A stretch of DNA of 64,000 bases from Takakia lepidozioides (GCA_030704615.1 CM060732.1:49476001-49540000); one strand, 5' to 3'; positions 2,328 to 37,936 are shown, numbered from the stretch's first letter. Numbers and translations: made by a program. Notes: generated by a model from the letters alone, not told the origin.

Positions 2328-2455
2328 CTGTTAGCAAGTATAGAGATCTGAAACCAGACAGCAGTTTACTTAAGTGTCCTCTCTCTCCCAATGGTTGTCC
2401 CAGTCCAATTCAGTTGTATGAAGACATGGCCTGCAAACAACCCAAATGTGAGAAG

Positions 2456-2642: not shown

Positions 2643-2715
2643 CTTCTTCTCTAATCAGCCACAAACCCAATGCTTCCACGATTTACTTCACCATTCCTAT
2701 TATTCTCTTGCCCTT

Positions 2716-9636: not shown

Positions 9637-9889
9637 CCAACTCAGCTTATTACACTAGTTCCTATACTGAATTGCGTCTGCTACTCTCCTGTAATCTAAT
9701 AGGCATTCACCTTTTTGCCTCAGCGTCCTACCATTGATTGTGGTCAAAAAAGTATTCATTCCACAGTTTCTCCTCATCTCTGTTACGGGTTTTTGGATAT
9801 GTTCCTGTTGTCACAGTGGCAGTATCATGTCAAAGTCACTCCAAACTACATTCACTCAACCAGCTAACTTGCAGAATTCAACATGGAAA

Positions 9890-10450: not shown

Positions 10451-11120
10451 CTGTTCAGAAACAGTTAAGCTACAACATAGCAACAGGTTTGTATAAACTC
10501 AAACCTAAACTCCATAGTGGCATGTGCATTTTTCTTGTGCCTTCTTTCTTGTTCCATCATAAATGAATAGATGAGAAATTAGGATAGAAGCAGCATAGGG
10601 CAGCATGTGGAATGGGGTGTATGACAAATAGAAAGCGAGCCCGATTTGAACCCGAGTAGCAGACATCGTATGGTCATACCATATTGGAATGTAGAGAATA
10701 TGGCTAGAGAAATCAGAGGATAGCCAACAAATCATACCTTTTTGTTCGCAGGTTGAGAACATGTGAAGATCACCCCCTTTACACCTAGCACCTGTCGCTA
10801 TCGAAAATTTAAGAAATCTTTCTCACTCGCGCCCAATCTTTTCTTTGAACCACAAATGTGTTAGTCCAACGACAACCATGTGTCACATCCGCCACCAAAT
10901 TAGGAGTTAAAGCAGTAGTGCAGCATACATGCAATTTCAGTCTCAGTTTCACCCTCCTTGGTGGGTAGACCCCACAATTCGCTCTCTTGAGGATTGGTAT
11001 GCCACAGAGGAAATGTCCTCAACAATACATCACAGACACCATTTGCAGGGAGAGGTTAATGAACCAAGGAGAGTAATCAATGAAGCAAGACACTCTCACC
11101 TTTCAAAAAGAAACATCGTT

Positions 11121-16076: not shown

Positions 16077-19000
16077 CTATTTTACAACTGGTATACGGTC
16101 TGCAACCCTCCGGATTGTGGAGTATATGTGTGCTGTAGGTGTTGGGGCACCAACCCTCTTCCCTATTTTGCGTAAGACCCTGGGTCGCGTTTCCCATGCC
16201 TCAACGAAATCTCGTTTCCTTTTCAGTGACATATTGTTGTTGTCATTTACAGGACGGAAGCTCTTTGCTGCCGCAGGGTGCAACATTCCTGCAACACTCT
16301 TGGCGAGAATATCAACAAGCTGCCCCCTACAGATACGAAGAGAAGACAACACATGTTTCTCCAGGTATTTGTCGTCCCCAACAATGCGAAGTATGTCTGC
16401 AAATTCTTCATTCATGGAGGATGGTACGAGGACAGGCTCCGCATCATAGGGGAAGTCATATGTGGAAGGGCCCTCTGTTGCATTTCCCAAACCCTCTTCG
16501 TCGCCGCCACTTGCATGAACCCTAAATACATTATGCAATCCTCCATGAATGGTTTCCAGCGCCGTGCCACAAGCACGCACTATGAGTCCATCCTACAAGT
16601 GTGGATGAAGCAACTTCAGGACTTGGACTTGATGCTTGCACAAATTGCCCTTCATTGCCCATGGTCAAGTGCAAGAAGCCCATTCGCATCCGGGGTTGTA
16701 AACAATGTAAATTGTGTTTGGGTGATTGGTGCTTAGAACATAGGCTGGTTGCCCAGGATGGAACGGAAGAGTGATATTGCAAGCTGGGATATCGTGTGCC
16801 GCAAGCACAGATTGGACATGTACTTCTCTTGTTTGTCATTCCTTATGAATCCATGCGTTTTCAGGTGAATTGCATACCAGTAGTGTGTTAGCACACGGCC
16901 TGTGAGTTCCTATATGAGCCAATCTACTCTACGCCCAGTCATTTTGTCTTTCCCCATCCTCAGTCTTGCCTTCAAGTTTCCATGGTATGCCTCAATGCTA
17001 GCGTTGATGTCTTGACTGGCATGTGGAACATGGTGAGCTGCTGTACACCACATTGCTATTTTAGGACGCCATTCCTTATCGATGTAGTCCATAAATTCAT
17101 GCCCATTCGGATATTTCTTTCTCATGCGTCGGAGCATTGTTGCTACCCTTGCAAGACCTTCTTTGGGATTGCTTGGTCCACCTCTACAGTACACGAGGTC
17201 TCCCATATCTTTCAGCAGTTTGCGGCAGTGATATGATCTTTGGTTTTCGCGCATGATTGCTTCACCCAAGCCCGCCGGACATGCCAAAGGCAAGGAAATT
17301 GAGCACTCCTTGAAAAACAGCCCTGCAAAGTACACATGCCCGCATGAGAGACTTCAAAGAGGACTTCGCCGGTGGACTTGGGCACTAACCCAGTAGACTC
17401 TTTGGTTGACTGGTCTGCCCGTCTGTTCCAGTGGACTTGCCCAACGGATTCAGGTAGCAGACTCGCCCACTCTGACCTGTCATGAGTGTTGCCCTCACGA
17501 CACCGCCAGCAGACCTGACCACGCTGACCTCGCAACGGACTTACGTAAGTGAGTCTTGCAACGGACTTGGCCAGAGGGCATCCCGAGCGGACTGGATTGC
17601 CAGCAGACTTCCGAACAGTCCCCTCCGGCGGACTCGCCTGCGAGCGGACTTGCTGGACCAGACTGAGGTCGCAGCAGACTGGCGCACGTGAGTCTTGCAG
17701 CGGCCTGCTTGCAAACAGTCTCCTCTGGCGGACCTGCCTGCCAGCGGACTTGCTGGACCAGAGTGAGGTCGCAACAGACTGGCGCATGTGAGTCTTGCAG
17801 CGGATTGCTTGCGAATAGTCCCTTCCGGCGAACCTGTCTGCCAGCGGACTTGCTGGACCAGACCGAGGTCGCAGCAGACTGGCGCACGTGAGTCTTGCAG
17901 TAGAGCTTGCAAACCCTCGGCATTGGGCCTAGACTTGCCCTTAGGGAGAGCAGCAGACCTACCAAACTTTGCTGCTGGCAGCACACCGAGCAGACTGACC
18001 TTGCAACATACTTGCGCAAGTGAGTCTTCCGGACTTGCTTATCAGCGGACTGGTTTGCCAGCAGACTTGCAGAAATGAATGGGCCAGACTTGTAGCCAGG
18101 ACTGCGTTGTATGGCAGGGGACTTGCCGAAGAGACAGACAATGGACGCAAACGACGGACTTGCACGCGAGTGTACACGAGGGTACGTGAAACTTACGTTA
18201 TGGCGTTTATTTCGGCGTCGGCATCGTCCACAATGAAGGCATTGGGTCGCCAGTCTGGCATTTCTGCGAGGAGAGAGTCCTGCAAGGCTGCCATCCACGG
18301 CACCAAGTCTGTTGTCCGCTCACGCGCGCATATGATGTACGCAACTGGTATACCGTTAAGCCACTCGTCGAAGACCATCAACGTGTACAATGGGAACTGT
18401 TCAAATGCAGAATGTCAGATGCTACCAGTGTGCGTACATCCACTACTTCTGCAAGTGGATAAATTGTGAAAGGGATGAAGAGTACCTTGTGGTGATTTGT
18501 CCCGAAGGTTGCATCGCATGCAACGATACGGGCATGGCCTAATTGAAGCATTCGCTTCTTCTGCCACTCAGTCTGTATGCCGATTGTGAATGTTAAGTCA
18601 CCATCGTAGTGCTTGAATGTTGGCGCCAATTTCTCCTCTTGATAGAAGAAGACCGATTTCGGGTTCTGGTCTTTCCACATGCGGACACTTTCCGCATCGT
18701 TGGCATGTTTTTTGAACGTTTGTCACGCCCGTTTCTCGGCCAGGTTGCGCACATCCTGCTCCAGCAAAAAATCATCTCGTGTCCATGCATCCCCCAACCC
18801 GGTGTTGTTCATGACGTGCTCTTTATGTTCCATCATGATTTGGGCGACTGACAGGCCTCGGCACCGACACTCCATGACCCATGCTTTCACTTCCTCGCTA
18901 ATGTGTGGTGCATAGGCGTGGCGAGTGTTCCTGAACTCAATGGACTTCCCATGACAGGCGTTCCCTTTCGCGTCTGTATGCTCCATATTGTTGTAGTACT

Positions 19001-19672
19001 TGAGGACACAAATGTCGGGGGCGAGATAGCATTGCTGGACCTTGAAACAGCACTGGCAACCACGCTTGTAAGACTCTCCATATTCCGACTTCTTTCTCCT
19101 TGGGCCTTTATGAGGGTGAGATGTTCCAGCACTCACAAGAGGTCCTCCACGTTTCAGTTTGGGATCCTCCACTATCGCATTGTTGGTGCGCTTGTCATCT
19201 GGACCGTAGCAGCATTGATACCTGGACATAAAAATCACAATGGATATCCATCGACTTTATGGAAGCATGAAATCACAGAACGTGGGTACGAAAAATGGCA
19301 ACAGACATGCAATCAGACTACAAAAGGACGATGAGGATGGTGCACACATGATACTGTTCAGAGAACTGTTGGCTCTCGGCTCTTTTTAACATGCCGGATT
19401 GCATTTTAGTATGGACATTCACCCAAAACTGAGTGGGGTAGTCCACCAAATTCTCCTCTCCAAGGAGAAAGTCATCAACTCTATTCCACGGTATGCAGGC
19501 CTTCAGAACATTATGTCTGGCACCCATATAACCATATTGCGTGTCTCTCTTCCATTGGAGGTCCTTCGTGTTGAAGGGTCCTGGTTTGGATGTTTGCAAA
19601 CTTTGTCGAAGAGGCCGTATAATCCAGCATCCCGTTTTTAGTATATCATCATCTTCTGCTTCCACGTCCATG
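16077..19672 (-). pseudogene. MULE-type transposase with SWIM finger (degenerate, intron-containing)
   Basis: KRGCQCCF...H...CHG finger, IVACDATFGTN, LMVFDEWLNGIPVAYII, FIVDDADAEINAI, CLWHVRRAW, SIEAYHGNLK...RRVDWLI. Element termini not resolved. Confidence 0.8.
17550..17900. repeat. 100-bp tandem repeat (about 3 units) inside the MULE
   Basis: GTGAGTCTTGCAG recurs at 17688, 17788 and 17888. Units are built from CAGACT/CGGACT submotifs. Confidence 0.85.
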
Positions 19673-21164
19673 CCATGTACAGTACAGAGGACACGCTTCA
19701 GAACCTGCAAGAAACGCGCCGCAATACACTGGACACGATGGACAACGTGCAAGGAGCATCAGTGCGCACGTTCGCGGCTGTTGGCAAGTGGCAGGTGGCA
19801 GGGATAAGGTTTGAATTCATGCCCTACAAATGGAGGGCTCAGATGGCATTTACGAATGGACGGTCCAGATGCGGCATCATCAGTGGACTGGAGGAAAACG
19901 GACTCATGGGCGGCGGACTGGCGGGCAGACTGTTGGGTGGACTGGCATGGATGGTGCGGATGGGTTTCTTAGAATGGACGATCTAGATCCTTCGGCCGGC
20001 GCGGACTGGCAGACTGGCAGACGGGCACAACGGACAGTTGGGTGGACTTGCGGGGACTGGCACGACTGGCGTGCACAACGGACTGGCCGACAGACTGGCG
20101 GTTTGGCGGACTGAGGAGAACTGGACTCACGGGCAGCGGACTGGCGGGCGGACTGGCCGCACCGGATTGGGGGCGCGGCGGAGCACGGGCGGGGCTGTTG
20201 CGGGCGCGCGGCAACAGCTGGGCAACCGCGCGCAGCGGCGGGCGGGGGGGGGGGGGGTGTCCAGGTGGGGGGAGCCGGGCGTCCGTGCGCGGGGCCCATC
20301 GGTCAGCTCGCGCGTGCGCCATATCGTCCCAATTATTGTAAAATGAGAGGCAGGTTAAATTGGACAAATTTCACATCCTAAGGATACATTAAACTTTTCA
20401 ATACTAATGCCATCAATTATTCTCAAAACAAGGTCTTTGCAAAGAATCAAGCTCCAACTTAAAGAACTGAACTCTAAGAACCAAAACTTATAGCTTTGCA
20501 CAATAATACGATGTATGACATTCATGTTACTAACTAACGGAGCGGTTTGATGGTCCAAACCAGTGTTGGGCGGTTATCAGGTTTTCGTGAGCTCCTCCGG
20601 TGCAGGTTCTTTGCCAATTGGCCCTTCTTTAAAACCTCCGGAGGCGGGTAAATGGCAAAAGAAAAAATTAAATAACCTGCCGGAGGCGGTTCTTTGATGT
20701 TTTCAAAAAACCCGGTTAAGTTCAATTCCGGTTATTAAAGACCTTTGCACAGGCGGTTTTTTGAACCGGTTCTGGAAGTTCAATATACTTCATAACCCGG
20801 TAGATAACCGGCGGTCCTTAAAACGGTTATATTGCGGTCATGTAAACGAACTACTTATAAAATAAAAATTTACATATATTGAAATGATGAAAATATTAAT
20901 TTTAAAAAAACTTAAATAAATGCCAAGCAGGGATTGACCAGCCATGCAAGATGGTTAGCCCTTGAAATTGGATCATCAAGATGATCAATAATGGACATCT
21001 TAGTTACCAGATTGGTGTCACATTCATCTTAGCAAAGGTATATGCTGACACTATTTATTGATAACCGGGTCCTTTTTTAAGGCCATGGCCGGATACCAAT
21101 AAATAAAAAACCAAACTTGCTCGCCGGTTCTCAAAGCCCGCCGGTTATCTCAACCCCTAGCCTC

Positions 21165-21249
21165 TGTCGTGCGCATACATATCGCTACACAACTACATCG
21201 CTGTCCAAACCACACCACACATATATGCACAATAAAGTAGTCTGCCACA
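21165..21249 (-). repeat. Repeat B, outer copy (element 3' terminus)
   Basis: 85 bp TGTCGTGCGC...CTGCCACA; direct repeat of 21603-21686 with a 1-nt indel. Confidence 0.9.
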
Positions 21250-21252
21250 ATA

Positions 21253-21600
21253 GATAGAAAACCCACGAACACACTGGTTACACAAAACATGAAAACCAAA
21301 CCATCACTCTTTAAAACAGTAGTCGAGCCAGGGGCACCCCAAGCTATGGGGACTCCACCCCACAACAACCTACACTCCCATCATGAGTACACTCAGACCT
21401 AAACGCATGCAGGAGTTCGGTCGCGCAGGCTCAACTCGAGAAAGATGAGCCGCGCGACTGCCGCTCTCGTGAAGATAAGACGGACCAGGTGTCAAACTAA
21501 ACTTGACACCTGATTTAACACTTGACCTAAATCCAAGTGTTAAATACAAATAACTAGTTTTATTCTAGCTGTTTTCACACTGTGCTTATTTAACTTGACA
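21253..21600 (-). repeat. Terminal repeat L (3' copy)
   Basis: Direct repeat of 32579-32926, flanked on both sides by repeat B. Confidence 0.93.
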
Positions 21601-21602
21601 GC

Positions 21603-21686
21603 TGTCGTGCGCATACATATCGCTACACAACACATCGCTGTCCAAACCACACCACACATATATGCACAATAAAGTAGTCTGCCACA
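21603..21686 (-). repeat. Repeat B, inner copy, preceded in element sense by a PPT-like tract
   Basis: Sense TAGGGGGCGAT (21687-21697) directly precedes TGTGGCAG... . B joins L through the palindrome GACAGCTGTC (21597-21606). Confidence 0.85.
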
Positions 21687-21944
21687 ATCGCCCCCTAGCT
21701 GGTGGATAGGTCCCTCTACCTCCAGATAGCTACAAGATGTAATAGCCACAGCCGTACTAAGTCCTCTATCACTGTCCCTATGTACTCAAACTCTATAGAC
21801 CAAGAGGCCGGGTACAAGAGTAGCCCCATCGTTAGTCGCCGTCTTGCAATCTATGAACTTGAGCCAAGATCTCGTGTGTTCAAGGTCTCCTAGTAGCTGG
21901 GTCTTGCGTTTCTTGTTAACCTCCCATGGTTGTATCCACTCCCA

Positions 21945-23290
21945 CTATCCAATGCATGTGGACAACCAATCCCCATCCGGAACCATCTCAAGAGGTGGAG
22001 TCAAGCATCCCATATGCCAACCTCTAGAGCACCGATCACATACCAGCATGGTGGCTGCCCCTTTAGCAGACCCACACAACATGCACCTCAAACCTGCAGA
22101 TACCACTGCCAGGTTTGGGTCAATCCTGCCATCGACATTCGGAAGGTGACATGGCGCACAATTACGCACATGGTCCTTCCAAGTGATGCCATCCCGACCC
22201 TCCAAGACCAAGACGCCTGAGGGCAAGACCTCTCGAACCCTCAAAATAACACGTCCTGCAGTCACATCCAGGGTCGTAGGAGCAGTCTGCTGCAGATAGA
22301 CATAGTCACCAGGGTTGAATCTCCGAACCCCAGGACGATAGCCCCCACCACGTATGGTAGCATACCTCAACGTATCACGGTGTTGTGCAATGGCAAGGTT
22401 CTCGAAAGCCATGGGCATGACTCTCTTGAACAACTCTGCACGCTGCTCACATGCACGTGCCCACACGTCCGGATCGTCAAGGTTAAGAACTAGCAGCTTC
22501 TCTGCGAATGGATGTAGGCAAATCCGGCTCTCGGCCAAAGAGAAGAAAGTATGGTGAGAAAGAGGCAAGTGATGCTTGCTTGCTGAACCTGTAGCCCATG
22601 GCTAACCAGGGTAACTGAAGGTCCCAATCTCCTAGGTGTCCCTTCTGCAAGCCATACTTGCGCAAACCCCTCTTTACTGTCTGAACAACTCTCTCTGCCA
22701 AGCCATCGGCTTCAGGATGATCCCGAGAAGTGGTGCGGTGGTCTATCAAGGCTTGTCACACAAAGCCTGAAACTCCCCCAAGAACTCTCTCCCTTGGTCC
22801 GTGAGTACCTCAGCTGGAGCACCGAATCGGCTAAGCACACAATCCAGGAATGCATACGCAGCTCCCTCACTAGCCTTATCAGGCAATGGAACCAATTCAA
22901 TCCACTTGGAGAAGTGCTCCACCATCACCAACACGTACTTGTTGTGGCGCATGGTCAGTGGCAACGGCCCTGCGAAGTCAAGACTCCACCTGTAGCCAAT
23001 CCCATGATCGGAAGAGGGTGCAATTGTGGAGTAGGGGCGTTGAATGAAGCACGCACCCTGTCACACACCATGCACCTAGCCACAAATTGTTGCACCTCTG
23101 TGCATACCACGCCACCAATACTGCCCCTGCAGTAGACTATGAGTGCGTCGCACCCCAAAATGCCCCAACTCCTCATGGGCATGCCGCACTAACCGGCCCG
23201 CTGTGTTGGGTGAGGCACAATCCTCACTCGACCATCCTCCCACACTCGGAGCAGGTGTGTCCCCTCCCACCTGAACCTCTTGGCTCGTTG
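21945..23290 (-). CDS. DDE integrase with C-terminal PHD finger
   Basis: HEELGH...CMVC (HHCC), LDFAGP, LTDQG, LAERVVQTVK. The PHD CMLC...CDRC...WHMGC LTPPL..VPDGDW lies at about 21950-22085. Confidence 0.92.
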
Positions 23291-23599
23291 TAGGATCCGA
23301 TCCCTCTCCTTGGCAGTCATAGTGGCTGCCGTGTCTCCACTGCGGAGGTAGTCCAACACAACTGAATCCTCATGTATATCTTTGGCGCCACCCTGCTCAT
23401 TGCTGGCCTCAGGGTCCTCAGACACTTGATCTACAGTCATCCCTGTTGTAGGTCCAACCTGGCCTTCCGCTGCCAAGATACACAGAAATGCAGATGCATG
23501 CCATCCGGGCACCATCTCCTCGTCCGTCTCACCATGCCACCGAGCTCCAGTGTCATCCTGCTGGCTCGTGCATGGATTGCGACTCAACCCATCTGCATT

Positions 23600-24960
23600 T
23601 CGATTGACCAAACCCGGTCGATGCACCACCTGAAAGTCATACTCTTGAAGGATGAGTGCCCACCGTGCAAGCTTCCCCGTAAGCTTGTCTGACTCCATCA
23701 ACCACTTGAGTGGTTGGTGATCCGTGACAAGGGTGAAGAGATTGCCGTATAGATAGCACCTGAAGTGTGCCACGGCCCACACTGCAGCTAAGCATTCTCC
23801 CTCATATGAGCTATACTTAGACTCTGCAGCATTGTTCGAGCGCTAGCATAAGCCACTACGAACTCTCTTCCCTCATCATCCACCTGTGTGAGCACCGCTC
23901 CAAGCCCCAGCATGCTCCAATCTGTATGCAGCTGAAAAGGACGCCCCCTGATAGGTCGTCTCAAGATGGGCGCCGAGGTCAACCTCGCCTTGAGCTCTTG
24001 AAAAGCTTGTTCTTGCTCATCTTCCCACTGCCACTCCTGGTCCACCTTGGTCAGCTTGGTTAGAGCCTTTGCAATGGCACTAAATCCCTTAACAAACCGT
24101 CTGTAATAGTTTGCTAACCCCATGAAAGCTCGAACTCGGCTCACATCCGTGGGCGTGGAACCTGTGCAATGGACTCTACCTTAGTCTGCTGTACCCCCAA
24201 TCCTCCAGGATATATCATGTGACCCAGATACTCAATCTGGTTGTGGAAAAACTTGCACTTGCCCGGATGTAACTTCAATCCGTGCGTCCTCAAGCGCTCA
24301 AATACCCCCTGAAGGTGTCTCTCATGCTCCTCCACCGCAGCACTAAAGATGATGATGTCATCTATGTAGCACCGAGCAAACTCCACCCCTGCTAGAATCC
24401 TGTCCATGACTCTTTGAAACTCAGCGGGAGCGTTTTAAGCCCAAATGGTAAGAACCGCCACTGGTATAGGCAATCCTTCCCGTGCTCATTGATCCCCCAG
24501 AATGCCGTCTTTTGCTTATCCGCCTCCTTGATCGGCAACTGGTGATATCCGGATCGTAAATCCAACGTGCTAAAGACCTTGGAATGCCCAATGGCATCAA
24601 AGATCTCCTCTGGTGTTGGCATGGCATACCTATCGGACTTGGTCTGACGATTTACAGGCCGGTAATCACCGCACATACGTCTCTCCGTCCAATTGCCATA
24701 GACATCCTTCTTAGCTGGCATCACTGTGGCTGAAGCATACTCTCCACCAGAGAGCTCCACCAAACCTGCCTCCCAGAGATCTTGAGTCCTCATCTGAATC
24801 AAAGACCTCTCCATGTCACTGTATCTATAGGGTCTCCGAAAGATTGGCGTGTCAGTGGCCAACTCAATACGGATCTGACCCTTCAGTGCTCCCAAGTCCT
24901 TCAAACTGAAGGCAAAGCAATTCCTGTAAGCCCTCAGGAACCGCCGTATACGTCGTCTCT
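23600..24960 (-). CDS. Reverse transcriptase and RNase H
   Basis: RMCGDYRPVN, FSTLDLRSGYHQ, PFGLK, YIDD; RNase H LHTDWSMLGLGAVL and TDHQPLKWL. Confidence 0.95.
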
Positions 24961-25339
24961 CTCCTCCGGTGACAATGGGTCCAATGTCAGGCTCCCAATT
25001 GTCCTCCGTAACTGCAACCTTAAGTCCAGTGGGCTTAGAGGTAGAGGACCCGTCCCGTGGTGCTATGCTGCAACCTCTTGAGCAGTACCCCCTTCCTGCT
25101 CAGTCAATGACAAGGCTCATCCTGCCCCCATCATCATCATTGAGAACCTCCTCATCCCGAGAAGAATCCCCAACCTCATCCATCACAGCTGCCTTCGCTG
25201 CCAACTCCCTCTGAACCTCGAGCACCTCCCACATGTGCCATGGATGTCTACACCTCGTGGTCCTCACCGGCTCGCCCCCACACTGCCTGTACCGTCTCGG
25301 TAGGCAGAGAGACCGTCAAGGGAAGTGCACTCCGCACTC

Positions 25340-26292
25340 TACGTTGCTCAGCCATAGCCAAGCTGACAATCCAGGTCAAGCAATTGAGATCCATTGCTTG
25401 CCCCAACACCTGACGACGTGATGCCTCAGAAAGAGAAGGCACCGCCGTGGTCCCAGTGGAAAACCCCATAGCCCGCTCTCGCTCGTCGGCATTAGGCTCC
25501 ACTAACTGCTGCAACTGAGCATCCCACAGGAGGCCAGGTCCACCATCCCGAAAAGCATGGGATCCTGGGAAGCTGAGCAGTGTAGGTAATGCTGCTCGTG
25601 GTTGACCCACCCTGTTGACCACTGCCAAAGGCGAACGGTCATCGTGTCTCACACGTTGAGACTGCCTTCCTGTGTCCAAAATGCCATCCACGGTGAGGTG
25701 TGCTGGCCGCTGCACCCCATCAAATGCACGCTTGAGCAGTGCGGGTGGCATCAAGTTAGTCCACCATAGTCGTGGACGATGAGCCCGTGACCCCACTGCA
25801 GCTGCATCCAGCAACACTGCTGACCCAAGCCACGACCGGACTTGATGCACACTGGCCATCACCCTGGCCCGAGAATCACCCATCAGTGGTACATTCTCCA
25901 AGATGTATGCTGGAGATACAGCTTGATGAAGCTGCAAGCAACGCAAAATCCGCACCATCTCCCAAAACAGACCCGTCCTCGAGTCTCAATCCATTGCCAT
26001 GCCCGGCTGATGAATGCCCTTGGCAGGGCCAACCTGCCACTATCAGATCAATAGAGCCAACCTGCTCCAAATCTTGCGCCCCCAACAAGGAAATGTCTGC
26101 TGGCAAGGCTTGTTGGTATCCACGAACTGCAGACACAGGCAACAAGTCAGGGTACTGCTGTACCAACTGAGCAACATGGCGCAGTGAGACGCGTCGTGCA
26201 GTCATCTCTTCACAGGTAACGCCTTACCCGCACACCTGCAGCACAGCAGCCAATTGCTCGCCCAAACAAGTCCAGAAGGCAATGCCTTCATC
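25340..26292 (-). CDS. C5-cytosine DNA methyltransferase domain (DNMT3-like) inside Pol
   Basis: Motif IV DLIVAGWPCQGHS, VI YILENV, VIII SRAHRPRLWWTN, IX ERERAMGF and X RRQVLGQAM. Motif I is damaged here but intact in copy 2 (LDLFGGISTG). Confidence 0.92.
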
Positions 26293-26561
26293 CGGCCGCT
26301 GCCATACAAGAGGTGTGGTGTCCAATGGCGACAACTGAGGTGGCCCTGGTGCAATCACCGAACTCTCCTCCTCCTGACGGTACAAAAGCTTCTTCCCAAG
26401 CTTGTTGCACCCAGGCCCTTGCTCGTACCCCACAAAGCAACCATGGCAGGCAACTCCGCCGTACCATGCATGTCATCCTGCTCTGCTGGAGGTGGCACAT
26501 CCTCTGCATGGCATTGCTTCCAGCAACTCTCCAGGCCAACTAACGGCAGCTGTGAAGGCGG

Positions 26562-27308
26562 CTAGTGTTGGCATCTGCCCCGCTGGGCAGCTGCAATACC
26601 CCCAATGAATGTCACAGGGAGCTGTGCACGGCGACCATCCCCTGACTGCCATCCAGGCCTGTAGGATGCTGACTCCTCCCAGAAATCCAGGGTGAAGCCC
26701 ATGGGGTATAACACTGCCCCACCAACGAGGACATCGTAAGAGACCGCGTCTGTCACAATGGCCTTGGCTCGCATCACTGAGCCATCTACAGGATGATCCG
26801 GCTGCAGTCTAATAGCCAACTGATGTCGTGTCATGCCGCGAGCCTGCTCTGATCCTCCCAGAGATGTCTGTATCTGGAAAGGACAAGGCTCCATATCCGC
26901 CTCCATGAGGCCCAAACCTGCAATAGCAGCTCTGCCCAACATCAGTGGCTGAGCTCCTGAGTCCAACAAGACCCGCAGTGGCCGGTACTTCTTGCCTGCC
27001 GGTCCACTCAAAGTGAAAATGCCTCCCTGGTTGTCTAACAAGACAACTCCAGGTGTCACCATGGCGCGCTCAATGGCTGGCCTAGCTGGCAGCTCCGTCA
27101 ACCTAGCAGCTGCAGCTTGCCAGGGCGCTGCCGTGGCAGTCTTGACCCTCAAATCCGAGGATCCCTCTGCCACTACACCTTCCACTAACTCCGCAGAAGA
27201 TGAAGTGACCTCCCCACTCTCACAGAGTGTTGCTGCTAGTCTGAACACTGCAGCTGGTCTCACCCCGGCGTCGCAATCATTGTTGCCGAGAACAGTGGGG
27301 CCTGACAC
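26562..27308 (-). CDS. Aspartic protease domain
   Basis: LRVLLDSGAQ active site and YDVLVGG (ILG-like) motif. Confidence 0.85.
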   Translation of the reverse strand: MSGPTVLGNNDCDAGVRPAAVFRLAATLCESGEVTSSSAELVEGVVAEGSSDLRVKTATAAPWQAAAARLTELPARPAIERAMVTPGVVLLDNQGGIFTLSGPAGKKYRPLRVLLDSGAQPLMLGRAAIAGLGLMEADMEPCPFQIQTSLGGSEQARGMTRHQLAIRLQPDHPVDGSVMRAKAIVTDAVSYDVLVGGAVLYPMGFTLDFWEESASYRPGWQSGDGRRAQLPVTFIGGIAAAQRGRCQH

Positions 27309-27363
27309 ACAGAGGTGGCTGCCCCCAATAACACACCGGCCGCACTAGCCTTGGCAGCAGGAG

Positions 27364-29196
27364 TCAATGCTGCACGTGTAGCTCTCCCAATGGCATAGAA
27401 CTCCGCCTCGGTAACAGTCGGGCGAGAACTAGGTGCCATGGATGGCGTTGACACAGTCTCCGCCAATGTGAATGACTGAGGAAGCCTTGCCTGACGGCTT
27501 GCCTCCCACACTGTGGATCCAATTCCACCTCTGCACCTCGTGGCTCAGGAACTCGTGCTGCTCCTCGAGTCACGGCTGCAGCAGACTCCACCTGCTCTAG
27601 TGGTAGTGCTGCTCCGCACATAAATCCCATGCCTCCCATATCTCCTCCCTCAGGAGCAGGAGGTGGACCATCCCGCCTGGGAGCCGGTACCGCCTGAGCT
27701 ATAGCCATGGCAGCGAGCCTCTGCTCTAGCTGCTGAAGCCGGTTGGCCATGCCTTGATCAACGCCCTGACCTCCGCGTCCTTGGCCATGTTGAGCTTGCC
27801 CTTGGCCTGCACCTCGTGCCCGACCACCTCGTCCTCTCTGGGCTGGTCCACCTCGCCCCCGGCCACCATTGTTCCCTTGGAACTGGCCTGGGCGCAACTC
27901 AGGATGCAAGTCATAACACTGGGCATCTCCATGCCCATACTTGCCACAATGCCCACACTGCAACTGTGCAGGCTGTGCTTGTGCCGGCCTTCTGCCACTC
28001 TCTGGGCAATCTCTCTTGACATGGGGTCCTCCACATGTCCAACATATCACCCCTGGTTGCTGTTGGCCTGCAAAAGATGCCACGGGCCTCTGCACCTGAG
28101 GCCCCCTGTAAGCCATGGAACTTGGGCTGGGCAACCTTGCCCCCCTGACCACGCTGTTGGGCAGTCCCTTGTGCTTGTGGGCTGACAGCTGTGCCCCGTA
28201 CAGGCATGTCCTTGCCAAATCCAATTGTAACAACTCGTTCCTCCACCATGTTGAGCTCAATCCGCTCAGCCAGCAGAAACACATCTGCTAATGTGGGTTG
28301 GGCTGCTTGTAACAGGGTTGCATCTCGCACCCTTCTCTTGAGCTCCTTGTCCAGAATTCCATACCAAAACTGGATTGCCTGAGCTTCAGTAACCCCTTGG
28401 GTCACACTTATCAAGCGCCTCATACGAGTGTACGCCTCTCGCAGGCTCTCACTGGGTTTGCGCTGGAAGTCTTGCAAACTTCGCAGCTTCTCTGTCCGTA
28501 CACCTTGGTAGTTCCTCCGCAACTCCTGGAAGAACCACCGGGTTGAATCTAGGCACATGTGTTGTAGTGTGGCAGGAGGAGTAGTAGCACCTTTGAACTG
28601 GTACCACCTGCAGAAGTACCAGCACTACCTGCTCCACTACTAGTGCTGGCAGTGGGAGCTATTGGTACTGATGCAGCTACTGGTCGCGTCGTGCCTCGAG
28701 TAATGGAGATGTAGTCAGGTGACCAATACATCCTCCACTCCTCAATCTCTGCTTCATGTCCTCGCCTGAACTCGTGGTAATCGTCCATAGGCGGGCCTTC
28801 CAAATGCTGGAACAGTCCCTTCCACGCCATGAATGGGGTGAATAGATGTGGATTGCGCATCTGCTGCAAATCACACCAGCTGTCGAACTCCTGGATAAAG
28901 TCATCCAACTCGATTGTGCCCACAGCTCCAGAGTACCTACGAGGCCCCTTGGTAGCTCCATACATCTCCTCCATGTCGTCCCACAACAATGGCGAATGAA
29001 AGTGCACACCTGTTGATGAAGCCTCCGAGTCTGTGTCTGACTCTACAGTAATTGAGGGTGGCGGTGAAGGTGGTCTGAACCGAATACCTCGTCTTGTGAA
29101 CCCACTCTCACTGTTACTGCCTGTAGCCGTACTCCCCTCAAAACCCTTGGGTAACTCCGTAATGACACTCACAATGTGCACCTCCTCCAGTGACAC
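27364..29196 (-). CDS. gag: Gag with two zinc knuckles (frameshifted)
   Basis: Major-homology-like region FQRKPSESLREAYTRMRRL; knuckles CWTCGGPHVKRDC and CGHCGKYGHGDAQC. Confidence 0.85.
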
Positions 29197-29695
29197 TATA
29201 AGGCTCTAGTACTAATCTAATAGTGACACGGGTGGGCACCTGTTGCAGTCTAAGGGTCATATCCCAGTGGCTCAGGGCACCTGCACCTGCATCCACCGCA
29301 AGAACTCCTATGGTTGGCTGGTCATCAACCCAGCCTCACCATAGAAGAAACACTGGTGGTTGCTGGTCATCACTCCAGCCTCACCACCGACAGCATACTC
29401 TAGGATTGACCGGTGATCAAATCCGGCCTAATCCCTATGAAAGCAAGCGCCCACACAAAACCAACATGGCGCACAGTCAAGCATGCAGGTGTTGGGGGGG
29501 ATCCAAACACAAGAAATCAAAACATCAACACCCCCACACCAAAATCCAGCTGCAATGCTGATCCTGCAGAATATCCCAGCCCAAAACCCCGGACTGACTG
29601 GCCTCCACCAAGAGAGGCTTTGGCAACTACAAGTATAAGGTAATGAAAATAGTACAGAGATGGAGGGGAAGAATAGAAGCCCGCCCAAGCAAGAT

Positions 29696-30340
29696 CTAAC
29701 CCTGATATGCTATCAACTTCCAGACTTCTCTCAAAGTACCTCGCTCTGCTTGATGGTAAGGTGTAGGAGGTATATCTATGTCCAGAAACCTGCCACTAAC
29801 CTTGTCCCAAGCTACAGTAGCTCGCTCTAACCAACCCTCCTCCTCTTTCTGCCAGGTAGAGACAAAGCAACACTCTGCTATCTCCCGCTCACTGAACACT
29901 AAAGAAAACAAAGGTAGGGTCTGATAGTCTCTCAACTCGAAAGCTTTGAGACGGTTTGGTGTCTTCATTGCGAATGACTGCATCGCCTTCAAACAGAACA
30001 AACTTGTCCTCGCTAATGAACCCCGCTCGTGGTTGTTGCAGAGCGTGTCCGACTGCAACACTGTCTAATTGCACAAACTTGTGCAGCTCCTGCTCCTCTG
30101 CTCCAGTACACCACGGCCTTGTGGCTGAACACCTTGGTCCCCGGTGCTGTCTTTGGCTGTGTTCCAAGCCTAGCTTTCACCCACTTTGGTATTTCACCTA
30201 CAGCTGCAGAACTGCTGCTCCAACAGAGTTCTGACTGTCCAAGGCGATATTGAGGCCCTCAATGCCAACTACAGCAGTCTGTTGTCTACTGCTAATGCCT
30301 GACTCCAGTATGCAATCAACTCGTCCAACTGTTCTCCACT
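29696..30340 (-). pseudogene. Unidentified degenerate ORF upstream of gag (element sense)
   Basis: 121-aa ORF 29696-30061 plus interrupted upstream coding-like sequence; no recognised motif. Confidence 0.3.
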
Positions 30341-31000
30341 CAAATCAGTCTGAGTTCCTTGGGAAACATAAATCCTGTCCCCTTGTGTGCACAGGCTAAG
30401 AGAAGAGACCTGCCTTCAATTACGTCCTCATTTCCCCCAGCCATGCAAGGAGTACATCCACAGGTTTGTCTCTCATATAGGCCAGCACAGGTTCTAGAAA
30501 CAGGATTGTGGATATTTCGTGGCACACTCACACTCTAAAAATTCCATAGATTTTTAGCAGAGTCCCAAAAAACAGAAACCAGGTCTAGATAGGTAGATTC
30601 CCTTTGCAGCTATCCCCTCAAAAACTGTGTCAAACAGAGTTCATTTGCCAAAGATATGACCAATTAGGCTCTAAATCCTTTAACTTAGATCAAAAGGGTT
30701 TTTTCTTTTTTCTTTTTCTTTTTCTTTTCTTTTCAAATTTAAAAATTCAAAGGAAGGTGAGAAGCTCTTTGGAAACTTCCCCTATCCTTACATGCTTTTC
30801 CACCTGGGTCATGCTTCTCCCTGCATGGGGTGGAATTTGCATATGCTTATCAGCGTTGGAGAGGGCGGCAAGAGCGGACGTACTGATTGCGGGCGTACAG
30901 AGCTGAAGGATGGGCTTTAGGGGCTATGGCGGCTGTCTCAATGCAGGTTGTAGCGGAAGTCTCCTGCTCGACTCTGTGGCAGTCGGGCTTTCTGGCGGGT

Positions 31001-31198
31001 TCCAATGTGCAGATGGTTACCACCTCCATGGGGATGCTCAATAGGGTTCATGGCCACACCCCGCACCTTAGTCCAGCTATTGCGCTTCACCTTGTACTTG
31101 TGATATGCACACCTTCAGCATAGTCTACTCTGTTCGGCCCCTTCCAGCAACTGCCCTACCATCGCTCGGCATCCGCTTGGTATAACCTTCTTTGCTCC
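31001..31198 (-). pseudogene. RPL8: Captured fragment of 60S ribosomal protein L8 (uL2)
   Basis: GAKKVIPSGCRAMVG...[36 protein letters not shown], read across small indels. Confidence 0.88.
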
Positions 31199-31656
31199 CT
31201 TAGTGAGAAGGATGTATCTTTTGTGCTCGTTGCATTTCGTGTCCAATTACTCCATCTACGTTGAGGATCAAAGAGAAAGCAACGACACCTGCTCGTCAAG
31301 CGAGCACTCAACACAGCACGAAGTGCGGCAGCGAGCTGGAATGAGCACAAGGCCCAGGCTACGTTGTTCCATAGGCGGGGGCTCCTTCATCACTGATGCA
31401 GAGGGGCAGGAATTTGCCTGAACTCCAGAGTGTCATACAAAATTATGTTCCCTTGTTTGTCCAGACAATGAAATTTCTCCACAAACACTCGTCCGTCCTC
31501 TACTCCCACACGCAGCCTGCGATACAGAAGCTTCCGCGCCCGCTTCACAATGGGCTTCACCGTCTCCACTCCCTGCTCCTCCTGCTTCTCTTCTCTACCT
31601 TCTTCTGCTGCAGCCGTCCACTTTGTTGGAGTAGGATCCCCTCCTCGGGTCGAAGG

Positions 31657-31927
31657 ATGGCGTCTTCGGACCTGATCTGGTTGTTGGTAAAGAACAGCAA
31701 CAAGTTTTTGGTGAAGAGGAACGGCAATGGCAATGCCTCTGTGACATTCAGCTCTGAGCCGAACAATTGTATGACTTGAACACGTTCCAATATTCAGGGC
31801 TTGCCAATAAGAAGACAGTGGCTGTTGCCTAAGCTGGTGAGGGTCTATCAGTTGTGCTTGCCACCACCAAAACTAAGAAGGTGAACCAGCCCTCAGTTTC
31901 AGTTCACCGATCACACTAAAGAAGGAT
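31657..31927 (+). pseudogene. RPL28: Captured uninterrupted 5' fragment of 60S ribosomal protein L28 (eL28) with its UTR
   Basis: MASSDLIWLLVKNSNKFLVKRNGNG..VTFSSEPNN / YSGLANKKTV..VVLATTKTKK.NQP, preceded by a pyrimidine-rich leader. Confidence 0.88.
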
Positions 31928-32561
31928 GTCATCTGGCGTTGCTGTAAATCCATCGCGAGCAATGAGACCAGCTGCAATGTCGTCTCGACATGCTCTAATT
32001 CCCTGACTATTGACTGTAAGCACCCGTGGCTTGGCCTGGTATACTTTCAGGAATTCGCCAATATTGCAATACACAATACTTGATCACCTTGCTGACACGG
32101 AGAGGAAAAAATCATGCATTCATGCAGGAAGCAAACAGCCTGCCCCACAGCCCGCCTCATGGCTACCGCTCTCCGGTGCAACGTCCAGCAATGCTTCCAG
32201 CCCTCAGACTGCCATCAACACCGAAGTTGCGCATGGAAAATCGCTCCTGCAAAAAGCGCCTCTGCTCGCAACAACCTCAAGTGTGCAGCCAGCTTCTCCT
32301 CATCTCCACTGCCCACTGCTTTCTTCAATTTCGGAAAGGCAGTCGCAGCCATGCTTGCTGGATTGCACCGACTCCCTCTTTGTCTATCCTCTTTGTTATT
32401 GCTGCTACTTGACCCCATTCTCAGATATAGCCACATGTTGACAAAAAATTGCAGCAACATCTCAAGCCTCCCGTTTCTGCTCCCCGTGACCAAGCTATAT
32501 TATAATAGTGCTTAAAAAACAAAAACATCATATCTAGCTTAGCACTGGAAAACTAGATAGA

Positions 32562-32577
32562 GCTCATCTTTCTCGAG
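32562..32577 (-). promoter_or_regulatory. Self-priming PBS of copy 1
   Basis: GCTCATCTTTCTCGAG abuts the LTR and is the exact reverse complement of 32761-32776 within the LTR. No TGG tRNA-type PBS is present. Confidence 0.8.
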
Positions 32578-32926
32578 TGATAGAAAACCCACGAACACAC
32601 TGGTTACACAAACATGAAAAACCAAACCATCACTCTTTAAAACAGTAGTCGAGCCAGGGGCACCCCAAGCTATGGGGACTCCACCCCACAACAACCTACA
32701 CTCCCATCATGAGTACACTCAGACCTAAACGCATGCAGGAGTTCGGTCGCGCAGGCTCAACTCGAGAAAGATGAGCCGCGCGACTGCCGCTCTCGTGAAG
32801 ATAAGACGGACCAGGTGTCAAACTAAACTTGACACCTGATTTAACACTTGACCTAAATCCAAGTGTTAAATACAAATAACTAGTTTTATTCTAGCTGTTT
32901 TCACACTGTGCTTATTTAACTTGACA
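32578..32926 (-). repeat. Terminal repeat L (5' copy)
   Basis: TGATAGAAAA...AACTTGACA. Identical to 21253-21600 except for two A-run lengths and the terminal base. Confidence 0.93.
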
Positions 32927-32978
32927 CCTCCGCTGGACCTGTTTATATCCGGTTTTTTGATTTTTGCAGCTCCTCCGG

Positions 32979-34480: not shown

Positions 34481-36054
34481 TGAAGCATATGTGTTCGTTT
34501 TGGTTCAAGCGCACAGTGATAGAGATTTGAAGCAACATCTTCAAAGAGCGCTTGTTCCCGCCACTCCAACAACAGATTATGATTTGCAAGTACCCAATAG
34601 CTCTCATTGTCACTTTTGGAATCAATGGGGATCTGAGAGTCCGTCCTCTTGAGCTCTTCTTGATTAGTGAAGATTCATGCACACAGAGTTTTACACAACG
34701 ACCTGAAACTTTCACACGTTCGGCTGTCGAAAGGGAATGCAAAGTTTATCGATTTCGATGCAAGTTCGACCTCAAGCAACCCTCAAGATCTCGAGGATGA
34801 GGATCGAGTAATGGAAGAGTTGTTAGAGACTTGATGTCACCGTCATCATGGTGTTGGATTTCGGGTCGACCATATATTGACATATCATTTTGTGCAGTTT
34901 GACTGTGTCGTCATCGGTAGGTTTTTGTTCGAGCGAATTGAAATGCAGGAATCGCCTCCCTATTTCCCATACGATCAGACTCCAATGATTCCTGCCAACG
35001 AAATTAGACTTGGTTGTCAGAGTTGAGTGTCATGCGCAAATCTCATCATGTACGTCCAAGGGGCTGGTAGGTACGTAGCAATTACCTGGCAAGCACAGGG
35101 AAAAGAACGGCCTGCACGCCGCTCAAATCGAACGAGGGCGTTGCGTCTGCGATGTCTTCGGGTTTCCTGATCAGGTAGGTTCTCGCCACTCGGAAAGGGA
35201 GTTTCTCCTCCGTCTTCTTCCAACGCCGATGACGATATATCCGTCGATACCATGCATTGCATACCGTTTTTTTTTCAAGCTGTTGATCAAAACCTCCAAT
35301 TTCCAATATTTGATTTTTTTAACTTTCAATCAACATCATCTTACCTGACATCTTTTCACCAAGACACGTATGGCCGATATTGTGGCACAATTTTTTCGTG
35401 CTACGAAGTACATCATCTTCATTACGTAAAATGGTTGTAGGAGGAAGTAACAACAACTCATATCTAAATGAATCAATTGCCAAATAAAGTGTATTGTTGT
35501 CACTTGAGGTAATACTTATAATTGTACATACATGCATTACGATAACTGAGAAATACAAACATGGAAGCTTATAAATTAGAAACTACATCACGAACTGTCT
35601 TATCTTTTTCCTCAAACCAGCCACATGTGTCTCCCGATCAGTGATTTATGACTATCAAAATTTGAAAATGACACCACAAAGTACAGATTGACAAATTTGT
35701 TTACATGCTCAAAACAATGAAGAGTGACGGTGCAAAAAGACTAAGTATAGACTTTGTATTCATGTAGAACCTTGGCCAATAATACATACCATCCATTTCA
35801 TTATTTATGAGAAACCATTCATTTGAATATCACTTTGCCTTAACGATGTGGTAGATAAGACTGCTTGCAAATGGAGGTAGGTAAGCTTGCAATTGCTTTA
35901 ATCTAAATTTTCATTTACACCTCAACATCAATATGTTGTGTGAATAGATTTAAAGCTTTCAAATATGGCCACATATGCATTTTGTTGGAGACTTGGGCTC
36001 TAGGGTTGAATTCATGTCTTGATTTCTTCTTATGTACTTTGCATAAAATTTCAC

Positions 36055-36497
36055 AACATTTTTTTTAACAACAAATTGAGAAGTAAACACTGTTTTATTT
36101 TTATTATATTCTCAATGAATTACACCTAAGTAGCATAGAAATAGCTAAACTCATCAAAGACGTCCATAACTGATCCAACGGCTTGTATGACATTGTCCAT
36201 GTATGTTTGTTATGTACATGTATATTCAAAATGTGTTCATAGAATGCAACAAAGTTCATTTGAGCATCATTGTTAGATGTACGAGCACATTCATGCGTCA
36301 AAAAACCTATACAAGAGGTTTTACATGGTCATCCTTATGAAAATAGATAATCCATTATTTAAGATGCGGTGGCTTGTTTGCATTTTGAGGTGCCTCAACT
36401 TATTAAGTCAACAATGACATAATCAATTGTCTCATGTAGTGTTGGTAGGTGCAACCAATCCTATTGCAATTATTCACAATTCAAAAGATATCGTTGA
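36055..36497. repeat. Repeat whose inverted paralog is at 57949-58392
   Basis: About 440 bp of high-similarity reverse-complement match. This copy continues uninterrupted (TCGTTGA|TCATTGAG). Confidence 0.88.
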
Positions 36498-37140
36498 TCA
36501 TTGAGTAGTATGTAGTCATCTCTCTCATTTCATGTCAAAGGTTGATAAACGATCACCACCCATGCCACAAGATCAACAATCAATGAGAAGTTTTTTTTTT
36601 TTGGCAAGAAACAAGCAAAAACTTGGAAAACTTTGGAAAGGTGTATCAAAACTCCCAAATGTGTTTTTTGTTTCAACCATGATGTTTTTAATTCATTAAA
36701 AAATTTAGGACCGCCAGAAAAAAATGATTATGAAGAACAAAGTTTTACTTTACTTAGAATTTTATGTAGAGATATCTCCTGCACCACTTGACACCATAGA
36801 AATCAATTCTGAAGGCAAAAAAGTGGACACAGAATGCACATATATACATCATAAAGCATATCTATACACGCCAAATAAATTTTATTAGATTATAAAAGAT
36901 AGTTGTGTGATCAACAACGCCAATGCAAATACTAGTTGATCATCAATTTGGAAAACAAGATTGTCAACAACACGTGTATTTGTCATTACTATGCAAATCA
37001 AATACATAAAAAATGTCTCAATACGTGTTCATTAGTTACAATAATAATTGGATCTTAAAAATCCATACAAAATGTAAAATATAATGTAAAATATTTGACT
37101 CCAATATGTTTGCAAATAAAAGACTATCAACTGAAATAGA

Positions 37141-37149
37141 ATATATATG

Positions 37150-37213
<64 letters not shown>
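37141..37213. repeat. (TA)n(GA)n microsatellite
   Basis: Direct observation. Confidence 0.95.
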
Positions 37214-37216
<3 letters not shown>

Positions 37217-37519
37217 CCTGGGAGCAACAACCCATAATTCAGGCCCTTGAGAAGGGGGAATAATTTTCCCTGTTCTGTTAAAAAAAAAGGGTAATTAAGC
37301 GACATACCACAATTTAATTACATCGATATTGATGTTATGCAACAAACTGATAATTCATCGTGTGGCGTATTTGATGCCACACATATAACATTCGATTTAA
37401 GTCCAATTAATTTAAGATACACAAGTTATTTATAGAACACATGTGAGAGATTGCGTAAACGATCGAAAAATAAATCTATTTCCAAAACAACATTCATAAT
37501 ATAAATCTATATATTAAGA

Positions 37520-37936
37520 CATGCTAGTTTTGTGTGGGCGGTTGTTTTTATAGGTGATTGGTCCGGATTTGATCACCGGCCAGTCCTAGAGCATGCTGTC
37601 GATGGTGAGTCTGGGGTGATGACCAGCCAGACCATCATTGTTTCTCCTGTGGTGAGGTTGGAGGTGATGACCAGCCAACCATAGGAGTGCTTGCGGTGGA
37701 TGCAGGTACAGGTGTAGGCTATGTTAGGAACTTAGTATTCCAAACCATAAGCCGCAACAGGTTCTCTAGCCGGTTACCTTGTGGAGAGGGGGTTATGGAC
37801 ATGTTCATGACCAGTTAAGTGTCAACATGGAGGTGCCACTAGTTGCTGGGGACAGTGCCGGTTCGAGCACTAGCGATACTAGTGGGTACACGAGATGAGG
37901 TGTGCGGTTTAGGCCACCTTCACCTCCCGTGTCTTC
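37520..37936 (+). mobile_element. Isolated internal fragment (leader plus gag start) of the DNMT-retrotransposon family
   Basis: Near-identical reverse complement of 54408-54823. Confidence 0.88.

Follow-up and report, generated by a model that had tools for sequence, protein, structure and literature searches.

A Ty3/Gypsy retrotransposon with a predicted DNMT3-type cytosine methyltransferase and split terminal repeats in the land plant Takakia lepidozioides

Introduction

The closest described counterpart of the retrotransposon reported here is KnitGypsy-Dnmt3 of the alga Klebsormidium nitens, which combines Gypsy domains and an intronless Dnmt3 (Ka/Ks < 0.2) with DIRS-like repeats (de Mendoza et al. 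2018, PMC5890265; this and the other cited works were available in part, and statements about them refer to those parts). The role of retrotransposon-borne methyltransferases has been open since 2018, partly because few tools exist for the algal hosts and no activity of the Gypsy enzyme was seen in yeast. Here we analyze a Ty3/Gypsy element at positions 21165-32926, on the minus strand, of a 64,000-nucleotide stretch of Takakia lepidozioides DNA (GCA_030704615.1 CM060732.1:49476001-49540000), hereafter called the window. Judged by its sequence, this element is a land-plant variant of the KnitGypsy-Dnmt3 kind. It has two testable features that we did not find described in the literature searched, namely a read-through-type stop codon and its repeat anatomy.

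Other methyltransferase-bearing retrotransposons belong to other classes and represent independent captures. SymbioDIRS-Dnmt3 and SymbioLINE-Dnmt of Symbiodinium carry a tyrosine recombinase or a long interspersed element (LINE) endonuclease, and SymbioDIRS-Dnmt3 methylated CG de novo in yeast (PMC5890265). We list the DAM-LTR and EpiLTR elements (bioRxiv 10.64898/2026.05.21.726589) in the same group, whose enzymes include an adenine methyltransferase, unlike the C5-cytosine type in the window.

A preliminary description of the window knew of no such element in a land plant, and a literature search, from which subscription papers were mostly absent and which did not cover figures, found none either; the 2018 paper was the only description of the kind. 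The 2026 preprint cited above says 'streptophytes', and its available text contains neither Marchantia, bryophyte nor land plant. PMC12344493 also says 'streptophytes', with no Marchantia or Sphagnum row in its supplementary table as available, and the available text of a chromatin-fusion survey (10.1101/2021.11.30.470311) does not mention such elements. The REXdb survey (Neumann et al. 2019, PMC6317226) treats ordinary long terminal repeats (LTRs), and its available text has no match for PHD, Marchantia or Klebsormidium. Of the novelty first claimed for the element, the land-plant host stands, while the kind itself had already been published as KnitGypsy-Dnmt3 (41% identity).

Results

A predicted DNMT3-type methyltransferase within a Ty3/Gypsy element

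The preliminary description reported C5-methyltransferase motifs in canonical order between a protease and a reverse transcriptase (RT). We located all of them on the minus strand: GWPCQ (motif IV) at 26037-26017, ENV (VI) at 25907-25887, AHRPRLWWTN (VIII) at 25784-25755, ERAMGF (IX) at 25478-25461 and RQVLGQA (X) at 25415-25395, flanked by the protease signature LLDSG (26969) and the RT signature YIDD (24368-24357). These motifs are intact in a domain at 25340-26320 that is intronless and non-rearranged in motif order. Motif I, starting at 26278, is garbled by clustered small deletions in this copy (copy 1) and intact in relatives and in a second, diverged copy (copy 2; 61354-64000, plus strand; 86.7% DNA identity over 2244 columns), which extends from Gag to motif IV and is cut by the window end. 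As had been claimed, copy 2 contains a single stop-free frame of 634 codons (62099-64000) encoding the Gag C-terminus, protease and motifs I-IV. This frame matches Pfam DNA_methylase above the cut-off (E 2.3e-08); the C-terminal half of the copy 1 domain alone (25248-25985) matched no Pfam family.

The proposed likeness to DNMT3 was borne out by two comparisons. A profile built from 15 family sequences ranked DNMT3A/B/C first among solved structures (E 4e-20), followed by DRM2 (2e-08) and HhaI (8e-06). A predicted model of the intact domain in L012 (pLDDT 79.1, pTM 0.85), one of the L-numbered loci retained as the best 80 of 161 relatives in a metagenome scan, gave DNMT3A/B as its top match (E 5e-17), with about 21% identity to DNMT3A. 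By profile and model, DNMT3 is closer than any other solved family or fold, including DRM, DNMT1/CMT, DNMT2 and bacterial enzymes, and a search of the ESM Atlas returned nothing beyond generic C5-methylase clusters. The fold and motifs I, IV, VI, VIII, IX and X align with those of host DNMT3 proteins (DNMT3A/B and Physcomitrium PpDNMT3b). We saw no PWWP/ADD or plant accessory domain in the element's methyltransferase, and its target-recognition region differs from that of host DNMT3, so its sequence preference cannot be read off.

Of 212 aligned family domains, chosen with a profile of the methyltransferase domain itself, 207 retain the catalytic Cys, 210 the ENV Glu, and 205 and 208 the two motif VIII Arg residues. 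These four residues are almost invariant across clusters of less than 50% identity, and the S-adenosylmethionine (SAM)-binding Gly and acidic residue are retained as well. In motif IV, E-C is frequent in place of P-C: 87 of the 212 domains have Glu instead of Pro.

A DNA-level codon alignment of copies 1 and 2 gave ratios of nonsynonymous to synonymous substitution (dN/dS) of 0.22 (0.16-0.31) over 600 codons, 0.24 in the protease and 0.30 (95% 0.12-0.59) over 121 codons of the methyltransferase first half. Within the domain, dN/dS was 0.13 for L066/L069 (0.07-0.23, 320 codons) and 0.13 for L066/L073. Values for the window against other lineages were 0.11-0.15, near saturation, within a between-lineage range of 0.11-0.19 in which several pairs are saturated. 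The codon comparisons support purifying selection on the domain, and the motif, profile and model results support its assignment as a DNMT3-type C5-cytosine methyltransferase. The domain is part of the element and not a chance neighbor.

The remaining domains of copy 1, all on the minus strand, follow the order Gag, protease, methyltransferase, RT, RNase H, integrase, PHD. Gag (27400-28974; Pfam Retrotrans_gag, below cut-off) has two zinc knuckles at 28044-28006 and 27957-27916, and the aspartic protease lies at 26690-27110 (Pfam match below cut-off). Farther along are RT (24180-24990; RVT_1, E 5e-09), RNase H (23603-23973; RT_RNaseH, E 1.8e-22), a DDE integrase with a zinc-binding domain (22500-23200; rve and Integrase_H2C2 matched on the intact relative L066) and, at the integrase C-terminus, a PHD finger (21950-22090; Pfam PHD, E 2.4e-08). 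A PHD finger is likewise an accessory domain in Gypsy-7a_cRei of Chlamydomonas (bioRxiv 10.1101/2022.06.16.496473). Positions 21165 and 32926 are the exact ends of the element, being flanked by the 4-bp target-site duplication GAGG (5' copy 32927-32930, 3' copy 21161-21164, minus strand).

A conserved stop codon behind the methyltransferase

The domain had been described as part of one polyprotein. It does share an open reading frame (ORF) with Gag and protease, but a conserved in-frame stop, overlooked in that description, separates it from RT and integrase. In the least damaged loci (L066, L012 and L073), ORF1 encodes Gag-protease-DNMT and ORF2 encodes RT-RNase H-integrase-PHD in the same frame, with one stop between them (in L066, ORF1 at 976-5082 and ORF2 at 5086-8226). 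The junction is spanned by 56 of 82 sequences, and 45 of these 56 keep a single frame. Among 50 Sphagnum-type loci (47 distinct after dropping identical rows), the stop is at the same place in 47; the junction reads TAG-CAACCC in 28 and TAA-CAACCC in 13, six others combine a stop with a different hexamer, two read TAC and one is unmatched. The homologous TAG of the window lies at 25063-25065 (minus strand) and is followed by CACCAC.

The bases after the stop resemble a known read-through signal. CAR-YYA has been reported as essential for read-through in tobacco mosaic virus (TMV), and 32% read-through was measured in a plant reporter (PMC2754532). Four of five divergent loci (L012, L066, L069 and L073) have exactly UAG-CAR-YYA, with TAG-TAG-CCA in the fifth, L062, and the CAACCC that follows the stop in 41 of the 50 Sphagnum-type loci fits the signal at five of six bases. 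No ATG occurs downstream of the stop for 47 codons in L012 and 116 codons in L066. From this context we predict that the stop is probably read through in the TMV-like, type I manner. Because the methyltransferase ends ORF1 ahead of a stop of this type, it is likely made at Gag levels, exceeding RT and integrase.

Five Marchantia proteins of 1278-1281 aa share one terminal motif beyond the methyltransferase domain. The 'fused' Marchantia and Sphagnum proteins P0002, P0007, P0011, P0036 and P0037 lack the junction residues and appear to be gene models spliced across the stop. Fused protease-DNMT-RT forms are present in other branches, unlike the window lineage.

Split repeats and a self-complementary primer site

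A further feature absent from the preliminary description is that the element ends in split repeats rather than in two ordinary LTRs. On the minus strand, repeat A1 (32578-32926; 349 bp, TGTCA...CA) forms the left end and is followed by the leader, the ORFs, a polypurine-tract-like sequence (21689-21705), repeat B1 (21603-21688; 3' terminus CACGACA), repeat A2 (21252-21600) and repeat B2 (21165-21251), the right end. Between A1 and A2 there are two 1-base indels and a difference at one terminal base, but no internal substitution. B1 and A2 meet in a palindrome, GACA-GC-TGTC (21596-21607, no strand), and the same two sequences form the outer ends of the element. This A-ORFs-B-A-B layout, also found in L072 and L074, departs from two equal LTRs in that the purine tract precedes B1 and not A2 and that the terminal B2 has no counterpart at the left end. 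The same layout occurs in PAT and Ngaro, which are split-direct-repeat elements with a tyrosine recombinase. Unlike these and other DIRS-order elements, the window element has a DDE integrase, a protease and 4-bp duplications, and no tyrosine recombinase.

The 16 bases immediately after A1 (32562-32577, minus strand) are complementary without mismatch to A1 positions 151-166 (32761-32776, minus strand). None of 2000 shuffles gave a match longer than 9 nt, and the two segments are paired in the minimum free energy fold (z -3.3). The 16 bases after A1 have no tRNA-type TGG start. A1 would contain the promoter and RNA start, and its complementary segment is the predicted RNA 5' end that serves as self-primer. 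In L066 a different 15-base pair occurs 26 bases after a TATA box. The complementarity in both elements points to self-priming, as described for Tcn1 and the Tf1-Sushi chromoviruses (Neumann et al. 2019, PMC6317226). Tcn1 has a chromodomain, whereas the window element has a PHD finger and, by Pfam, no chromodomain.

In nine elements with both ends, the 4-bp duplication is perfect in six, matches at three of four bases in two and at two of four in one. The B-A palindrome GACA-NN-TGTC has a 2-base spacer in all eight junctions, those of the divergent L066 and L073 included. Integrated copies begin at A and finish at B, and in every lineage seen both ends are halves of the internal palindrome. 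Among 28 loci with a B repeat, some of which are the same insertion in several assemblies, 20 stop at the first B, 7 continue into A and 1 is cut off. Contigs at the A2-B2 junction show B followed by A, B followed by mixed flanks, and the purine tract before B; few contigs bridge the junction, and breaks fall at branch points.

Related elements L071, L077, L029 (1-1896) and L074 (2601-4751) also have a B-A-B end with different B and A sequences. Those of L071 (16213-16865) and L077 (9107-9565) belong to other sequence families and are not counted as support here. Some neighboring elements show RT-RNase H-integrase with no methyltransferase in view, and the split-repeat lineage may thus include members that lack the enzyme.

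Relatives in bryophytes and green algae

With the C-terminal half of the domain as query, 79 of 5933 candidates scored as homologues at E<=0.001, the lowest E being 7e-101, so the resemblance is not due to chance. Identities were 72% in Calypogeia fissa, 56-71% for many Marchantia polymorpha genes (most of the query covered) and 51-55% in Sphagnum. A profile search of 1.84 billion representatives gave 495 proteins at E<=1e-30, of which the best 150 were analyzed; among viral contigs, 48 pattern matches included no relative of the element. The 30 proteins that were looked up include K. nitens GAQ93235.1, three from Closterium, and others from the chlorophyte Hariotina, Calypogeia and Marchantia. 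For chlorophyte members carrying a DNMT3 domain we found no description in the literature searched.

Relatives have one of three layouts: protease-DNMT at the protein end, protease-DNMT-RT fused, or RT-RNase H-DNMT-integrase-PHD. In domain trees built from retrotransposon domains only and midpoint-rooted, the window domain groups with Marchantia, Calypogeia and Sphagnum (43-sequence tree, approximate likelihood ratio test [aLRT] 99.9; also in the 212-sequence tree). The RNase H-DNMT-integrase type forms a single clade of 129 tips (P0059, P0062, P0067, P0068 and 125 others), with Hariotina reticulata as one named member. An RT-RNase H tree of 66 sequences, which has a single unnamed outgroup, agrees with the domain trees. 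We infer a single family, old and spread across green plants, whose methyltransferase domain changed position at least once. The order among bryophyte elements departs from host phylogeny, which may reflect either old parallel lineages or horizontal transfer.

The window domain and K. nitens GAQ93235.1 share 41% identity over 213 residues (E 1e-40), and the K. nitens protein, which is partial, has the same knuckle-protease-DNMT order as the window element. Likeness to KnitGypsy-Dnmt3 extends to Ty3/Gypsy domain order, a homologous, intronless and non-rearranged Dnmt3, purifying selection and, as far as the legend of Fig. 4c tells, split repeats. The domain is placed in the Pol ORF of KnitGypsy-Dnmt3 (PMC5890265), whereas in the window lineage it ends ORF1 before the conserved stop. 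Self-priming, 4-bp duplications, an internal palindrome and PHD were not found in the available text of that paper; all are present here, self-priming as a prediction. K. nitens has few copies, in contrast to the window family, which is very deep in reads.

Age and abundance of the family

Across 2232 aligned codons, copy 1 has no premature stop but 23 frameshift calls, of which 19 reflect one or two missing bases; two calls also appear in copy 2, which is free of stops, and are attributable to the aligner. By comparison, ORF1 has 10, 10 and 7 stops in three Sphagnum-type control loci. A short-read contig covering the single-copy segment 31255-32514 shows 1 base difference and 14 gaps against the window over 1264 bases. 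Since copy 1 has no premature stop, A1 and A2 show no internal substitution and the contig differs mainly by gaps, the frameshifts of copy 1 probably stem from the assembly, and we regard this copy as young. We rejected the reading of copy 1 as a dead, decayed copy on its 0 stops against 23 frameshift calls. The assembly appears to have about 1% small deletions in places, and other claims based on frameshifts in this DNA need care.

Summed contig depth in run X1, which is not copy number, was 5,195-40,125 over the element body versus 7-9 over 31175-32407, and the methyltransferase bins (20,451, 15,472 and 5,925) are within the range of the remaining element. Taken from depth, the family is very abundant and the majority of its members carry the methyltransferase domain. 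Run X5, by guess RNA, has contigs over most of the element and almost none over 25421-26242, to which we give no weight either way.

Discussion

Proposed mechanism

With slightly better than even confidence, we read these data as a young, abundant element that makes its DNMT3 at Gag levels, packs it and methylates its own new DNA before integration. ORF1 (Gag-protease-methyltransferase) and ORF2 (RT-RNase H-integrase-PHD) are joined by the conserved in-frame UAG of the relatives, and it is probable that a minority of ribosomes read through it, so that the methyltransferase would outnumber RT and integrase. Because the primer site and the purine tract bound B+A, self-priming after A1 and plus-priming at the tract before B1 should yield a linear B-A-internal-B-A molecule, a step we regard as very likely. 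The ends of integrated copies are halves of the palindrome, unlike these predicted linear ends. The simplest reading, and a likely one, is that the integrase ignores the linear ends, cuts GACA-NN-TGTC within the repeat and leaves 4-bp duplications. Cutting of both palindromes, or of a one-repeat circle, would give A-ORFs-B. The full A-ORFs-B-A-B form, the sole form with the 3' repeat needed for the next round, would with an internal cut need end-joined DNA, likely a circle, cut once; the balance leans moderately toward such a step.

The integrases of foamy virus and human immunodeficiency virus type 1 (HIV-1) reportedly cleave palindromic LTR-LTR junctions. There the reaction is a side product, whereas the palindrome of the window element is a fixed part of the repeat; integration through it, if true, would turn a retroviral side reaction into the main path. 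In the last step of the proposed mechanism the methyltransferase would mark unintegrated DNA so that new copies arrive methylated, which we consider an even call. Copies methylated in advance might limit their own expression or hide among methylated host DNA. The 2018 paper had already proposed, in discussing DIRS elements, that an element's own new DNA is methylated (PMC5890265). It is rather doubtful that the complete scheme, with a palindrome cut on a circle and a capsid-level DNMT3 dose methylating that DNA first, would define a green-plant-wide lineage still alive in bryophytes.

Several observations weigh against this mechanism. In this assembly the window's own TAG (25065-25063) is displaced by one base from the RT frame, the commonest stop context, CAA-CCC, is an incomplete fit to the signal, and L007 has an ATG three codons downstream of the stop. 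Not every member needs the enzyme at Gag levels, since the domain of the 129-tip clade is located between RNase H and integrase. Among decayed copies the self-primer match is 9-10 nt in 7 of 15 and at most 6 nt in 8 of 15. Four of five A-B junctions are flush and have one shared base, and extra bases, 18 in number, occur only in L072, which is thin support for end-joining. KnitGypsy-Dnmt3 gave no methylation in yeast, a result its authors call inconclusive since DNMT3B failed too (PMC5890265). Close Sphagnum-type copies have dN/dS of 0.51-0.85 in the domain, as expected for decay, and lend no support. Finally, CpG observed/expected is 0.50 and 0.54 in the two copies versus 0.48 in flanking host DNA and 0.99 in a single Gypsy control fragment, a content without the footprint of self-methylation above host level.

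Alternative explanations

Some of these points suit other uses of the enzyme. It could act on chromatin, riding with the integration complex or freed in the nucleus, and methylate the insertion site or host DNA. The PHD finger of the integrase in the window and its relatives fits this, as does the clade with the domain fused directly ahead of integrase, and moss DNMT3b is described as a de novo methyltransferase for heterochromatic CG and CHH sites (PMC6453930). In the window lineage, however, the domain is in ORF1, far from the integrase and before the stop, and the Klebsormidium methylome is ordinary despite its Gypsy-Dnmt3 elements (PMC5890265); we consider action on chromatin unlikely. It is less likely still that the domain is kept for a role other than methylation, such as DNA or RNA binding, particle structure or a decoy for host silencing factors. 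The inactivity of the Klebsormidium enzyme in yeast (PMC5890265), the lack of additional CpG loss in the element and the frequent Pro to Glu change in motif IV would agree with such a role, but it is difficult to square with catalytic Cys, Glu and Arg residues that are almost invariant, a SAM-binding Gly and acidic residue that are kept, and dN/dS of 0.11-0.30 between lineages.

Alternatives to read-through and to a circle concern how the proteins and the full form arise. RT and integrase could come from a spliced or separately started RNA or from re-initiation, with the TAG as a possible splice acceptor. The Sphagnum-type TAG does follow a T-rich run, and an ATG occurs three codons after it; L073 has one at codon 14. 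Tca2 of Candida, whose gag-pol stop is said to be bypassed in a way that is an open question, offers a parallel. Yet CAR-YYA fits four divergent loci whose sequences ahead of the stop vary and reach no more than 52-60% pyrimidine, an ATG close to the stop is absent from L012 and L066, and 45 of 56 sequences keep both ORFs in one frame, which together leave this explanation fairly improbable. A stronger competitor, which we still place below even, dispenses with the circle: an extra template switch would give the full form, and recombination between B1 and B2 after insertion would give A-ORFs-B. Flush A-B junctions agree with it, and B1/B2 recombination would likewise preserve the target duplication. 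Against it, 20 of 28 B loci end at the first B, a large share to ascribe to recombination between 110-bp repeats; the unit delimited by purine tract and primer site is B+A, not A..B; and the outer ends are the two palindrome halves in every lineage seen.

Relevance

The read-through stop predicts enzyme amounts close to those of Gag, and a family this deep in reads may shape the host methylome. The repeat anatomy would explain why LTR-finding programs miss such elements. Marchantia has full-length ORF1 copies annotated as hypothetical (for example Mp4g09160, Mp5g06330, Mp5g06860, MpVg00370 and MpVg00540), so the role of the enzyme can be tested in a model plant with methylation mutants. Our literature search found no paper naming any of six Marchantia gene ids.

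Captured host sequences and other features of the window

Copy 1 alone contains an insert at 30690-32515 (approximate edges, minus strand), about 1.8 kb of joined host mRNA pieces with an A-rich tract at its end. It includes the C-terminal coding sequence of RPL8/uL2 (PF03947, E 4e-10) and an antisense RPL28 piece (below cut-off); 31390-31872, with no Pfam match, is presumably NAA38/LSM-like. Depth over the insert corresponds to a single copy in DNA runs, with family depth on both sides, and is high in the presumptive RNA run; the insert was likely captured by template switching. Copy 2 has host-like sequence in place of its 5' part: an intronless TMEM18 frame (60250-60921, plus strand) and its 3' sequence (60250-61350 together) run straight into mid-Gag, where copy 2 has no 5' end of its own. 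This is likely a second captured host mRNA. The best named match of the TMEM18 frame is Sphagnum troendelagicum (75%), with 69% for Physcomitrium and Marchantia, and in a 38-sequence tree it falls among mosses near Sphagnum with weak support (47-54). The sequence itself thus indicates a land-plant host, likely a moss, and a charophyte host, which would have lowered the novelty of the element, is set aside.

A third, partial family member at 54068-57948 (minus strand) has an A-like repeat (71%), a leader with tandem repeats, including an array of about 1 kb at about 55200-56300, and the Gag N-terminus only. Parts of this member and its flank recur inverted at 36049-37936 (36049-36498 and 37520-37936; 95-97% identity), perhaps as a duplication or a deleted fourth copy. 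An unrelated Ty3/Gypsy fragment at 4864-7296 (minus strand), 32% identical in RT-RNase H, has a CpG observed/expected of 0.99, unlike the rest of the window. A cluster of degraded pentatricopeptide (PPR)-like repeats, which we take to be of the PLS class, lies at 8000-13100 (minus strand). A 100-bp tandem repeat at 17500-18040 (3 copies, 85-88%) is located beside frames at 16077-19256 that are presumably transposase-like.

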